Part shown: piece after piece, positions 3,001-6,000 of the stretch
How positions within the stretch are numbered: position 1 is the first letter of the stretch
How the letters are laid out: each line of letters opens with the position of its first letter
Assembly: GCA_043822705.1 (NCBI GenBank)
Contig: JBDRBK010000210.1
Coordinates: forward strand, 1 to 11,120
Direction: 5' to 3'
Length of the DNA: 11,120 nt
DNA from: Fidelibacterota bacterium
Lineage (GTDB): Bacteria > Fidelibacterota > Marinisomatia > Marinisomatales > TCS56
Position numbers: made by a program

Positions 3001-6000
3001 GCAGTCACCAAGACGCAACCGATCGATATGATTGTTGCGGCGTATGAAAGCGGCATCAGGTGTATTGGTGAAAACAAAGTACAGGAAGCCAATGCAAAAT
3101 TTTTTCAATTAACCAATTTGGCCCACCTCGAGAAACGAATGATCGGCCACCTGCAATCCAATAAAATCAATAAAGCACTTCAGTTGTTCGACACAATTGA
3201 TTCCATAGACTCGGTCAAACTGGCGAGTAAAATCAGCCAGGTTGCGAATGCGGAAGGTCGTACGATCCCAACACAGCTTGAAATCAACACCAGCAAAGAA
3301 CCGGCTAAATTCGGTTTTGACCCACATGATATAGATGGAATGCTGGCTTGCTGTAATATGGACGGAATTGTGGTGGACGGATTAATGACAGTTGGACCGC
3401 TGATTAACGATATGTCGGAAGTGCGAAAAGCCTTCAACGGATTATTTAAACTCAGGGAAGAACTTAATCGGCAGCTAGGAAAAAAATTACAGCACCTATC
3501 GATGGGTATGAGTGGTGATTTCGAGATAGCAGTAGAACTGGGCAGCACCATGGTTCGCCTTGGAACAATCCTTTTTGGCGAGCGGCGGCAATAAGCATGA
3601 CCCAATCGAATTATCTTCCTGCCGTTTACTTGATTGCCGGTCCAGCGCCTTGGAATATCACAATTACCGACACAGTTTCCCTCGCCGGGCACTGTTATCA
3701 CGAAAAAAATAAGTACCGAATTATCTGGCCCGAAGAATTAAGTGCTAAGATCGTTTCCCCAGGAAATATCAGTCAACTACGCGACACACTGCTTATCAAT
3801 GAGATTATTCTTGTGGACAGGCTGCAGGGCATCGATTACCCGGCCTGCGTTGCTGGACACATTAATCGCAGTGGCACCAATTATCTAATTGGCCGAACAC
3901 CCTACCGCGACCTACCACGATTCCCAGACATGGGAGGCATATATTTACCAATTAATGACCTGAAAGCGATAAATGTTCACACTGTTGGCAGTCGGAGATT
4001 TGGTTGTTTACAAAGCAGGAACGAATATATACTCAGCGAGGGAATCGCATTGGTTGCTATGGTTATGCATTATAGCGGCCTCAAAATTCGGGCTGTTGGC
4101 GCCGATCCGGTAAGAATTAATCTGCTATCAAGGCTTCCTGATTTCATATATCCACACCAGGCCAGCAACAGTAAATGCAATATAAAGGATAGTGAGCACT
4201 AAAACACTTGACTTTCTGCTGTTTTCGGGTATACTGTTTTGGTACGTAAATAATCTATATAACCTTGGAAAGTGTTCGCCCGAGGCCGGAGGAAATGGTA
4301 TGAATACAGCAGAAATAATAAAAGTGCTATCACAGAAACAGAGTAAAACCCAAGTAGAAACTCGTGCTATCATTGAAAAGACTATTGATACCTTGGTCGA
4401 ATCAATGGTCACAGAAGAACGGTTCACCATACCCGGCTTTGGTACCTTCGGAGCGCGATTGAAAGCGGCGCGAAACGCCTTCAATCCGGCCCTTAAGGAA
4501 ATAGTTGTTTTACCGGCCGTTAAAACTTGTTTCTTTCACCCCTCTTCTAACTTGAAAGAACAAGTTAAAAACAGGGGGGTTGTCGAATGATTAAAACAAC
4601 TTATACTGAAATTGTCGAGAGGGTGTCACTCAAAACGGGCCTGAGCAAGCAGGCGGCGCACGACACACTGAAGGATTTTATTGAATTAATTGAAGTTGGT
4701 TTACAGCGCGATGGGCACGTTACTATCAAAGCCTTAGGATCTTTTCGCATAAAAAAAGTTGCCGAACGCAAGGGCGTGAATCCAAGGACCGGCGATCCGA
4801 TAGTTATTCCAGCACACAACAAGGTGGTTTTTCGCCCAGATCCTATCATAAAACAGCGCCTTAACAAAGGAAGAAAAACAATGAAAAACAATGAAAAACC
4901 AAAAATTTCGATTGTTGACTATTGGCGGTCAAGCCGCCCGGTTCAAATAGCATCCGCGGTAGCGGCTGTTTTGTTGATAGTGGTTTTTGTTTTATCGGTT
5001 TTTAAAGGAGGTAACGACCAAATAGAAGAGGTGACTGTCGAAAAAATGACCGTGGAGACTGGAATTGTCGAAGCGATTGAACTCACAGAAACTGAACCGT
5101 TAGCCGCTACAGATCTCCCACTGTCTGACCAGACGCCGATTAAGGAAGCAAAAGCGGGCGAACAGAAAGTTGAACAAGTGACTTCTGTAAAAAGCGGTAC
5201 TACACACTTGATTAAAAAAGGTGAAAATTTATGGTCCTTGGCTGCCAAACATTATGGTGATCCTTATCTGTGGCCGCTAATATACCAGGCAAATCGCGAT
5301 GTAATTAAAAACCCCGACGTTCTTAAACCCGGCGCCAGTATTGTTTTTCCAGTATTGGATGAACCGGTGGACCAATTTACCGGAAAAGTTACTGGCAAAG
5401 ACCGTGAAAACCTGGCAATCGGCAATCTGTTAGCATTTCAGGCCTATAAGACATATGGAAAAGTTGATTTCAATGATTTTTACAGAGTTGCTAATAGGCT
5501 CGCCCCCGAAATTGTGAAAAAGCATATGGCGGAAATGTCGATGCCGGTATCGGAGTTAGCTTCGACCAAAACCCGGGATTAAAAACAGCAAAGCAGGCGC
5601 ACCTCCGAACTCCTGCTGCCGACAACAGCTTTTAATTATAAGAATATAGCTCAACGCGCAGGCGACAGTTTCATACTGCTAATGCTCTATGCGACGACAA
5701 ATGTGGATTGGTTGTGGAAATTTATGCTTGGGTGGGTGCGCCTGCTAGTTAGGTTGGTCTGGAAAATATTCAGCGAAAAACCTTTCAATTATCTATTTGG
5801 ATAACGATTATTTATTTTCCTTCGCTTATTTTCGGTAAATTGCCAGAGTGAAAATGAAATTCGATTGAACGGCCCGAAGCCATTAAATTAAACCTCGAAA
5901 TTCTACTATGATCAGAATAAATCCACTGAAAAACGTCTCAATGACGGCTAAAACCACAATAATATTATTTGTCCTCGCGTTTCAATTCGCCTGCAGCCCG

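Follow-up and report, generated by a model that had tools for sequence, protein, structure and literature searches.

A conserved HU/IHF-like gene pair with a predicted transmembrane LysM subunit, a plausible DNA-to-wall tether in Fidelibacterota and other bacteria

How bacteria place their chromosomes with respect to the envelope is understood only in part, and the tethers known so far work at the membrane or the pole. A contig of a Fidelibacterota bacterium (JBDRBK010000210.1, assembly GCA_043822705.1; the entire stretch of 11,120 nt is referred to here as the window) raises the question of whether a single protein could reach from the chromosome to the wall. The initial annotation read one of its genes, encoding an HU-family domain, a hydrophobic helix and a LysM domain in succession, as a trans-envelope tether between nucleoid and peptidoglycan. 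The architecture, the predicted topology, the diderm host and the intact DNA-binding arm all support this reading, and a DNA-to-wall tether function is plausible, while its claim to novelty was lost to a computational study published in 2017.

All parts of the proposed fusion, namely the HU domain, basic stretch, hydrophobic helix, acidic linker and LysM domain, were recovered using Pfam, Kyte-Doolittle hydropathy and AlphaFold2 (AF2), and a helical extension was found to follow the LysM domain (Table 1). The reading frame of the fusion gene is intact, the sequence AGGGGGG is located 7 nt 5' of the ATG, and the protein can be aligned with its homologues from residue 1.

Table 1. Features of the window, in window coordinates, with the basis of each assignment or its location
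Feature	Position	Strand	Basis or location
gyrB, C-terminal end	1-357		upstream of pair
gyrA	402-2921		upstream of pair
YggS	2896-3594		between gyrA and HU pair
Unassigned 201-aa ORF	3597-4202		between YggS and HU pair
Promoter-like site, TTGACT-16 nt-TATACT, 5' of HU pair	4208..4235	+	10/12 consensus matches
Stand-alone HU/IHF-like gene, 96 aa, operon partner	4300..4590	+	Pfam Bac_DNA_binding, 65.3 bits
Whole fusion gene, 331 aa + stop	4587..5582	+	HU - linker - TM - linker - LysM - helical extension
HU/IHF (DNABII) domain, cytoplasmic by prediction, residues 1-94	4587..4868	+	Pfam, PDB matches, AF2, Foldseek
Basic juxtamembrane linker, residues 95-120	4869..4946	+	K/R versus D/E count; AF2 pLDDT
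Single transmembrane (TM) helix, residues 121-139	4947..5003	+	Kyte-Doolittle; AF2 helix
Acidic disordered linker, predicted periplasmic, residues 140-204	5004..5198	+	charge count; pLDDT
LysM domain, residues 205-255	5199..5351	+	Pfam, NCBIfam, PDB matches, module model, VIA-align
Conserved helical C-terminal extension packed on LysM, residues 256-331	5352..5579	+	local HMM; module model

The fused HU domain covers profile positions 3-90 of 90 of the Pfam family Bac_DNA_binding (PF00216; residues 6-93, E 3.9e-22, 78.7 bits against a cut-off of 22.4), which was matched by 122/122 scanned family members. Comparison with PDB sequences returned IHF and HU proteins (E 5e-13 to 1e-8), with the arm aligned without gaps. 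The AF2 fold (pLDDT 68-89) consists of helices at residues 6-17 and 21-42, followed by strands and a helix at 86-94, and its best Foldseek matches were HU/IHF chains (E 8e-6 and weaker, TM-score by target 0.62-0.76). There are 8 K/R in the DNA-binding arm (segment 52-84), and its residue at the intercalating position, a name that comes from HU/IHF-DNA structures, is P66. Its length of 33 residues is shared by 146/146 fused and 15/15 partner HUs, whereas the three other HUs of this genome have arms of 33, 34 and 34 residues, so that the fused arm is one residue shorter than two of them. Proline occupies the intercalating position in 143 of the 146 fused HUs and in all 15 partners. Among the best 150 of the 720 family members, K3, L39, F53, R61, G63, N65, P66, T68, I74, F82 and N93 are at least 90% conserved.

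This conservation bears on the possibility that the fused HU serves as a protein-binding module and not as a DNA binder. In the 2017 study (Burroughs, Kaur, Zhang and Aravind, Cell Cycle, 2017; PMC5499826), a protein-binding role is suggested for bacterial proteins with two HU domains and for CCDC81 of eukaryotes. A shift away from DNA binding is argued there for the bacterial HU-CCDC81 clade, in which the tip of the hairpin is truncated and the clasp has about 2.8 basic residues, against 8.1 in classical HU/IHF. Two observations point in the same direction: 20/122 members have secondary Pfam matches to HU-CCDC81_bac_2 at E<=1e-3, and the family mean of 5.95 K/R per fused arm is below the published classical figure of 8.1, with the reservation that the arm segment counted here may differ in its bounds from that of PMC5499826. 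Against this stand the absence of arm truncation (0/146), the retained proline, the conservation of R61, G63, N65, P66 and T68, and the 8 K/R of the window arm. Moreover, the fusion protein scored 17.5-19.7 bits on HU-CCDC81_bac_2 (PF18175), for which the cut-off is 35, and gave no match to HU-CCDC81_bac_1 (PF18174), while both models exceeded their cut-offs in a Bacteroides thetaiotaomicron control. Since PF18175 matches below the cut-off were also obtained in the Escherichia coli and Bacillus subtilis controls, the weak score reflects general HU likeness. Both the Pfam cut-offs and the features of the arm mark the fused HU as classical and not of the HU-CCDC81 type, and a protein-binding function in place of DNA binding is improbable.

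The second component of the system is the 96-aa HU gene, which had been noted just upstream on the same strand and which proved to overlap the start of the fusion gene: its TGA (4588-4590) and the fusion ATG (4587-4589) share the four bases ATGA. In the partner, GGAGGA is located 6 nt 5' of the ATG. The promoter-like site in front of the pair was the best of 6 sites in positions 3500-6000, where shuffled sequences gave a mean of 4.6 sites; it is a consensus match only, and the consensus may not be the promoter type of the host. A stand-alone HU gene lies directly upstream of the fusion in 15/15 loci having upstream DNA, distributed over three phyla. Overlaps of 4 bases occur in five of the seven Balneolaceae loci (L003-L005 and L007 being named), and those of L009 and L008 measure 8 and 14 bases, respectively, by the listed ORFs. 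In the alignment of the 15 partner proteins G48, P63 and P72 are invariant. The partner and the fused HU of the window share 24% identity, and in a tree of 34 rows the partners clustered together (support 88/92), with the fused HUs all to one side of a branch (73/91); rows from Fidelibacterota, Balneolota and Pseudomonadota are present in both groups. On this tree the two kinds of HU are ancient paralogues, a pattern that recalls IHF alpha/beta. Because the genome holds three more HU/IHF paralogues, the pair is regarded as a specialised addition. Gene order and its conservation suggest that the two products would form a heterodimer.

As for the membrane segment, which had earlier been judged by eye, the assignment was upheld by the top 19-residue Kyte-Doolittle window (121-139, mean 2.99; the runner-up in the whole protein reached 0.91) and by an AF2 helix at residues 120-138. 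Among members with one HU and one LysM match, a segment scoring at least 1.8 separates the two domains in 144/145. The preceding basic linker contains 7 K/R versus 2 D/E and is predicted to be disordered, given its AF2 pLDDT below 50, while the acidic linker (65 residues; D/E 14 versus K/R 6) has a pLDDT of 25-31; across the family the latter linker has a median length of 61 residues and is net negative in 116/144 members. Counts of K/R in the 15 residues flanking the TM segment were higher on the N-terminal than on the C-terminal side in 130/144 members, equal in 7 and lower in 7, and a signal-like N-terminus was detected in 0/144. These computed signals favour an N-in/C-out topology, with HU predicted inside and LysM outside. 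Proteins of the Omp85/BamA type, 832 and 821 aa long, are encoded in the genome, on account of which the organism is considered diderm and a periplasm present, as the tether reading had assumed. DNABII proteins do occur outside cells, in biofilm matrices, and a reversed orientation would expose the HU domain to extracellular DNA in the same manner; beyond this general occurrence nothing specific speaks for such an arrangement. It would run opposite to the positive-inside signal in 130 members, lacks a signal-like N-terminus, and would leave the LysM domain in the cytoplasm, while a basic folded domain of 94 residues is, in our judgement, an unlikely N-out passenger. The reversed topology is accordingly rated as very improbable.

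The LysM domain was recognized by Pfam with a marginal score (PF01476, residues 207-255, E 9e-5, 22.8 bits against a cut-off of 20.9), by the NCBIfam LysM protein model PRK11198 (residues 193-255, E 1.3e-10) and by comparison with PDB sequences (TsaP 3jc8, E 1.8e-5; Kbp 7pvc, E 1.6e-4). In the module model it adopts a beta-alpha-alpha-beta fold, with strands at 5-9 and 52-56 and helices at 16-24 and 27-36 (module numbering; pLDDT 93-97), which VIA-align superimposed on Kbp with Z 7.8 and an rmsd of 1.8 A over 64 aligned residues, other LysM chains giving Z 5-7.4. The initial annotation had been cautious about the modest LysM hit and the few homologues carrying one. The scarcity is real as far as Pfam is concerned, with just 41/122 members reaching a LysM match at E<=1e-3, but it does not denote an absent domain: the LysM core residues Y223, W229, P230, I232, N236, P243 and P255 are at least 90% conserved in the best 150 of the 720 members. 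Both by sequence and by structure, the closest LysM relatives are Escherichia coli Kbp/YgaU (7pvc) and Myxococcus TsaP (3jc8), a secretin-associated protein, both of which lack an HU domain, a TM helix ahead of the LysM and a helical extension. Kbp combines its LysM with a BON domain; it binds potassium in the cytoplasm, and we know of no demonstration that it binds peptidoglycan. Given the marginal Pfam score and Kbp as the nearest relative, we infer wall binding from the family of the domain and from where the module is predicted to lie.

The helical extension was found with a local HMM in 135/150 of the best members (of 720) and was modelled together with the LysM domain as one module with a pLDDT of 87.4 and a pTM of 0.81. 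Its helices occupy module residues 71-90, 96-106, 108-118 and 123-129 (+199 for protein numbering). A Foldseek search with the module gave nothing at E<=1e-3, and VIA-align yielded for the extension at most weak TPR-like rows (Tom20, Z 4.2; PilF, Z 3.5; the CadC periplasmic domain 3ly7, Z 3.5), so no fold was assigned to it. When the periplasmic module was searched alone by an alignment-based method, 117/120 proteins among the matches listed carried an HU domain; a word-index search with residues 200-331 alone found 3 other proteins. A sister family in the same phylum bears DUF1508 in place of HU on the same TM-LysM-extension chassis, and in one report paired DUF1508 domains are predicted to resemble the sPC4/Whirly single-strand nucleic-acid-binding topology (PMC12065111). 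Because the module accompanies HU in nearly all the matches listed and is swapped to DUF1508 in the sister family, it may tentatively be viewed as a dedicated 'nucleic-acid-binder anchor'.

The size of the family bears on whether the fusion is a genuine and maintained protein. A word-indexed search repeated the earlier count of 9 other clusters (325-395 aa, 29-42% identity), but as a measure of family size this number fell to an exhaustive profile search, which recovered 720 representative clusters at E<=1e-30. The best 150 of these comprise 133 proteins with the order HU-TM-LysM-Cext, 11 with HU-TM-LysM, and one each with HU-HU-TM-LysM-Cext and HU-TM-LysM-Cext-LysM-Cext, so that the HU-TM-LysM order is present in 146/150. 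The suspicion of a small, poorly conserved and decaying family, which the 9 clusters of the word-indexed search had fed, is thereby removed, and a decaying or chimeric fusion or an annotation artefact is considered refuted by the 720 representatives and the common domain order; the intact frame, the partner gene in 15/15 loci and the confidently modelled periplasmic module also count against it. In the phylum of the window, matches at E<=1e-25 were found in 36/151 sampled genomes and in 3/25 families, in one of which the 11 matches are without HU, and in the phylum of the Balneola locus a match was present in 11/101 genomes. Owing to this patchy distribution the system is considered accessory. 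Carriers in culture include Rhodohalobacter halophilus, whose protein is named 'HU family DNA-binding protein', and Balneola sp. EhC07, represented by its locus. A search of sequencing runs identified 4 from DNA, each with a small share (0.06-0.14), and none from RNA.

Relationship to IHF deserves separate consideration. The HU pair resembles IHF alpha/beta and HU alpha/beta in its fold, in an arm with an intercalating proline and in consisting of two old co-encoded paralogues, and the top NCBIfam models for the partner, as for the fused subunit, are IHF alpha and beta. Classical DNABII proteins, however, are soluble and of about 90-100 aa, whereas here one subunit is extended by 237 residues that include a TM helix together with a periplasmic module, and the partner is under the cut-offs of its top models. 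As the scores lie far under the IHF equivalog cut-offs (60.3 versus 111 bits), the pair is not IHF itself. IHF is site-specific, and membrane-integrated DNA-binding regulators are exemplified by ToxR and CadC; the pair could hence be imagined as a transmembrane one-component regulator or sensor, in which the LysM module would sense the state of the wall or free muropeptides and thereby alter the binding of a membrane-bound IHF-like dimer at a few specific sites, and with it transcription. That both subunits score best on IHF rather than HU models agrees with this possibility, as does the patchy, accessory distribution, and the CadC row of the extension points the same way, although within noise. 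The IHF-model scores are nevertheless far too low for the cut-offs, no target genes adjoin the pair conservedly, and two long and disordered linkers would be a poor conduit for a conformational signal; in addition, we know of no DNABII protein acting as a ligand-controlled regulator. On balance, a regulatory function is unlikely.

The genomic neighbourhood proved to be of limited reach. The position downstream of gyrBA, to which meaning had been attached, does not bear it: the block of gyrBA, yggS and the unassigned ORF (for which no Pfam or NCBIfam family was found) lies 5' of the pair only in the window and its two closest loci, L001 and L002, and the gyrBA neighbourhood is absent at the Balneolaceae, Thiohalomonadaceae and f19 loci. 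A conserved third gene was rejected, as the downstream neighbours vary by lineage (DUF192 in relatives of the window, Dabb in Balneolaceae). Proximity to the origin was likewise discarded as a clue to function, dnaA being about 20 kb from the pair in genome G148 and about 845 kb in the single-contig genome G017, and a structured RNA at an intergenic inverted repeat (5592-5603/5735-5746) found no support, with no Rfam match and a fold z-score of -1.41.

A SPOR/FtsN domain targets septal glycan, and yggS is often found in division clusters. Both bear on a role in division, according to which the LysM module would target septal or nascent peptidoglycan and the DNA-binding end would work at the division site, whether in clearing the chromosome, in nucleoid occlusion or in terminal segregation, and not as a general static tether. 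The pair adjoins yggS, 3' of it, in the closest relatives of the window, and the 2017 study suggests a role in division, draws a comparison with Noc and RacA and includes a SPOR/FtsN domain in a related architecture (PMC5499826). The window has no SPOR domain by Pfam, however, no septal preference can be seen in the sequence, and the yggS neighbourhood is confined to the window, L001 and L002, which makes a dedicated division factor about as unlikely as a regulator.

The class to which the fusion protein is most similar was described on computational grounds. According to PMC5499826, bacterial proteins combine HU, a disordered segment, a TM helix and LysM or SPOR; the single-HU forms share an operon with a stand-alone HU gene, called the more classical subunit; and anchoring of the nucleoid to the envelope through an HU heterodimer was proposed. 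The present system agrees with that class in domain order, in the two-gene arrangement and in the proposed function, and overlaps with it in taxonomy, since the published tree key contains bacteroidetes and gamma-proteobacteria (PMC5499826) and Balneolaceae and Thiohalomonadaceae rows were obtained here. Present in the window are the HU-disordered-TM arrangement, a LysM domain after the TM helix (predicted outside) and the operonic stand-alone HU; absent are the strict HU-CCDC81 features, that is, scores above the PF18174/PF18175 cut-offs, a truncated hairpin and the loss of basic residues. The published HU is truncated at the tip of the hairpin and has about 2.8 basic residues in the clasp (PMC5499826), whereas the arm here is of full length with 8 K/R, and the HU-CCDC81_bac Pfam models are not reached. 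The fused HU, moreover, outscores its partner on the classical Pfam model (78.7 versus 65.3 bits), contrary to the published description of the partner as the more classical subunit, and the available text of PMC5499826 makes no mention of a helical extension after LysM. With architecture, operon and tether idea all contained in that paper (PMC5499826), the direct protein link between nucleoid and sacculus, presented as new in the initial annotation, is not a new idea. In our literature search this computational paper alone surfaced, with no experimental work on any member and no direct DNA-to-wall link established by experiment in any bacterium.

Among known systems of chromosome attachment, Noc of Bacillus subtilis relies on a peripheral amphipathic helix and RacA on a partner protein; to our knowledge both lack an integral TM helix as well as a wall-binding domain, and their folds are unrelated to the HU-LysM protein. 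What they have in common with it is the proposed logic of a DNA binder that holds the chromosome at the envelope (PMC5499826).

Taken together, the data are best accommodated by two translationally coupled genes producing an IHF/HU-like dimer with one envelope-anchored subunit that links DNA to the sacculus, to which we assign a probability of roughly 55%. According to this preferred reading, the HU domain at the N-terminus of the 331-aa protein would have the free 96-aa HU as its cytoplasmic partner, and the dimer would bind and bend DNA, as both subunits have a full-length beta-arm and an intercalating proline. The 26-residue basic linker would lead to a single N-in/C-out TM helix, behind which the 65-residue acidic disordered linker would carry, in the periplasm, a compact module of LysM and helical cap gripping the glycan strands of peptidoglycan. 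Chromosomal DNA would in this way be connected physically, across the inner membrane, with the sacculus, probably for positioning or segregating the nucleoid relative to the growing wall. A stronger formulation, that an IHF-like heterodimer with both subunits DNA-competent is permanently wired to peptidoglycan and couples chromosome and sacculus mechanically, is held tentatively, at somewhat less than even odds. The taxa concerned in that formulation are Fidelibacterota, Balneolota, Ignavibacteria, KSB1 groups and some Gammaproteobacteria.

Beyond the 2017 paper, the present analysis adds the size of the family, which amounts to hundreds of 50%-identity clusters, the full DNA-binding arm in both subunits, and the recognition that the LysM domain and its conserved helical extension make up one compact module almost exclusive to HU proteins. 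Since carriers exist in culture, the tether hypothesis is directly testable. If it is true, a pair of proteins binding DNA inside and peptidoglycan outside would couple the nucleoid directly to the wall.

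The 331-aa fusion protein joins a Bac_DNA_binding domain (residues 6-93; 78.7 bits against a Pfam cut-off of 22.4) to a marginal LysM match (residues 207-255; 22.8 bits against 20.9). The best-supported reading, to which we give a probability of about 0.55, is that it and the stand-alone 96-aa HU encoded beside it would form a membrane-anchored, IHF-like heterodimer linking DNA to peptidoglycan. Between the two domains lie a basic segment (residues 95-120; 7 K/R vs 2 D/E) and an acidic one (residues 140-204; 14 D/E vs 6 K/R). The transmembrane helix, placed by eye in the initial annotation, was borne out: residues 121-139 are the sole strongly hydrophobic stretch (Kyte-Doolittle mean 2.99; next best window 0.91), and the AlphaFold2 model of the whole protein, built on a 10-row alignment, has a helix at 120-138, flanked by disorder at 96-119 and 139-202 and followed by a confident C-terminal part. 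In this model residues 1-94 adopt an HU fold (pLDDT 68-89) and Foldseek ranked HU and IHF chains first, while a PDB sequence search aligned the arm gap-free to IHF and Thermotoga HU. An alternative reading of this architecture as a ToxR-like transmembrane regulator is considered rather improbable.

Topology was evaluated in 144 members whose single HU match and single LysM match are separated by a hydrophobic segment; another member was left out as below threshold. K/R residues are more numerous in the 15 positions preceding the helix than in the 15 following it in 130 members (equal in 7, fewer in 7), none of the 144 has a signal-like N-terminus, and 116 have a second linker with net negative charge. 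An N-in, C-out orientation is predicted from this positive-inside pattern, and the reversed topology appears very unlikely. Since the genome encodes Omp85-family proteins (832 and 821 aa), the organism is a diderm and the C-terminal module would be periplasmic.

Modelled separately (19 rows), the periplasmic part forms one compact module (pLDDT 87.4, pTM 0.81), in which a beta-alpha-alpha-beta LysM is followed by four helices with weak, TPR-like structural matches. Structural superposition matches the LysM part to Kbp (Z 7.8, rmsd 1.8 A, 64 residues) and to numerous further LysM chains (Z 5-7.4); Kbp, its nearest LysM relative, is not known to bind the wall. For a protein carrying such a module, a role as a division-site factor is an alternative that we regard as doubtful.

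The module is also joined to other N-terminal domains. In f21, a family within the same phylum, all matches (11/11) start only at profile position 82-106, and the three proteins examined have a DUF1508-TM-LysM-extension architecture by Pfam, with no stand-alone HU gene beside them among the ORFs listed. A module-only search among longer proteins yielded 261 at E<=1e-8; the 120 listed carry HU (117), DUF1508 (one), DUF2155 (one) or none of these (one). In the 536-aa protein P0217, an N-terminal DUF2155 (102.9 bits) is joined to the LysM-helical-extension module. In two other module carriers, P0229 and P0239, the Pfam HU model matched only positions 3-54 of 90 (~23 bits); judged by these matches, they may be reduced-arm forms, nearer the HU-CCDC81 description. 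Paired DUF1508 domains are predicted in PMC12065111 to resemble the sPC4/Whirly single-strand nucleic-acid-binding topology, so the exchange of HU for DUF1508 is weakly consistent with an anchoring role of the module for proteins that bind nucleic acids.

The coding features of the window are listed in the table. The stop codon of the HU gene overlaps the start of the fusion gene (ATGA, 4587-4590), and the promoter-like element is a consensus match only. The YggS ORF overlaps the gyrA end by 26 bases as listed, and its true start may lie further downstream. The 201-aa ORF matches no Pfam or NCBIfam family and gave no usable Atlas match; at the corresponding position L001 and L002, the two loci closest to the window, have ORFs of 191 and 198 aa, likewise without a family. 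The inverted repeat has no Rfam match, and its fold z-score is only -1.41. The eight-gene order gyrB-gyrA-yggS-unknown-HU-fusion-DUF192-EamA is common only to the window, L001 and L002. Judged by this order and by the HU tree described below, the organism is probably related to Marinimicrobia (labelled Fidelibacterota in the tree).

Features of the window and DUF1508 proteins of family f21
Feature	Position	Strand	Remarks
gyrB end	1-357	+	
gyrA	402-2921	+	
YggS-family PLP protein gene	2896-3594	+	
201-aa ORF	3597-4202	+	without family; between yggS and HU pair
Promoter-like TTGACT-16-TATACT	4208-4235	+	
96-aa HU gene	4300-4590	+	GGAGGA 6 nt 5' of ATG
Fusion gene, 331 aa	4587-5582	+	AGGGGGG 7 nt 5' of ATG
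Perfect 12-nt inverted repeat	5592-5603 / 5735-5746		131 nt between arms; in the 325-base gap
DUF192 gene	5908-6405	+	325-base gap after fusion gene
DUF1508 (YegP-like) protein	L093:2240-3295	+	f21
DUF1508 (YegP-like) protein	L094:1467-2669	-	f21
DUF1508 (YegP-like) protein	L095:1466-2497	-	f21

An HU gene of 90-104 aa lies directly upstream of the fusion gene in 15/15 loci; those with upstream DNA were the window, L001, L002, six Balneolaceae loci, two Thiohalomonadaceae loci and five f19 loci (f19 being a further family of the phylum), and L006, with no DNA upstream of its fusion gene, was not counted. G48, P63 and P72 are invariant among these partners; in the window, partner and fused HU share 24% identity, and three further HU/IHF genes lie elsewhere in the genome. 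In a maximum-likelihood tree of 34 rows (16 fused HUs, 15 partners and the genome's three other HUs), one group takes all partners (support 88/92) and a branch supported at 73/91 has the fused HUs together on one side; the deeper order is unsure because one of the other HUs sits on a long branch. Rows labelled Fidelibacterota, Balneolota and Pseudomonadota are present in both groups, and the pair therefore represents an old duplication inherited together, the same pattern as in IHF alpha/beta. The arm equivalent to residues 52-84 has 33 residues in 146/146 fused and 15/15 partner HUs, with proline at the intercalating position in 143/146 and 15/15, respectively. That the HU domain instead serves as a protein binder is considered quite unlikely.

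In Burroughs et al. 2017 (PMC5499826), bacterial HU forms are described that also contain a disordered segment, a TM region and, outside the cell, SPOR or LysM; where the form has a single HU, its gene and that of a stand-alone HU make up a two-gene operon. The window's pair has all three architectural features. Judged by sequence, it is a further member of this computationally described kind; the finding is not new, and the novelty suggested in the initial annotation does not hold. The same paper gives about 2.8 arm K/R for the HU-CCDC81 clade and 8.1 for classical HU, whereas the window's arm shows no truncation and carries 8. HU-CCDC81_bac_2 scored 17.5-19.7 bits on the window's protein (cut-off 35) and HU-CCDC81_bac_1 did not match it, while both models passed in the Bacteroides thetaiotaomicron control. 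By these arm features and Pfam cut-offs, the pair is therefore filed under the architectural class and classical DNABII, putatively outside HU-CCDC81 in the strict sense. With secondary HU-CCDC81_bac_2 matches at E<=1e-3 in 20/122 members, the family does border on this clade. A full-text literature search, with subscription journals largely outside it, returned no experimental work on a protein of this type.

The nine related clusters initially reported were reproduced by the word-indexed search, but an exhaustive profile search with their alignment recovered, at E<=1e-30, 720 representatives, each standing for a 50%-identity cluster, the best 150 all exceeding 208 bits. Classified with local HMMs from parts of the fusion-family alignment and a hydrophobicity scan, these best 150 comprise HU-TM-LysM-extension (133), HU-TM-LysM (11), HU-HU-TM-LysM-extension (one), HU-TM-LysM-extension-LysM-extension (one), HU-LysM-extension with a hydrophobic peak slightly below threshold (one) and others (three). 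P0050 and P0137, also among them, have two TM segments ahead of three or four HU repeats and lack LysM, a different membrane-linked multi-HU architecture. Positions at least 90% conserved in the best 150 are K3, L39, F53, R61, G63, N65, P66, T68, I74, F82 and N93 in HU, and Y223, W229, P230, I232, N236, P243 and P255 in LysM. Because only 41/122 members match Pfam LysM at E<=1e-3 while these core residues persist, the LysM is divergent from the Pfam model yet conserved within the family, which explains the earlier caveat that most homologues lack a LysM row. The gene pair is real and conserved, and a decayed fusion is scarcely credible.

Named relatives, called 'HU family DNA-binding protein' by NCBI, belong to Marinimicrobia / Neomarinimicrobiota, Balneola, Balneolaceae, Rhodohalobacter, Ignavibacteriales, candidate division KSB1 and Thiohalomonadaceae. 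The distribution is patchy and accessory: matches at E<=1e-25 occur in 36/151 sampled genomes and 3/25 families of the window's phylum (23/33 genomes in f19, 11/26 in f21, and the window's genome plus 1/2 others in its own family, f1), and in 11/101 genomes of the Balneola locus's phylum. The biology of a DNA-to-peptidoglycan link would matter if shown, and there are cultured carriers such as Rhodohalobacter.
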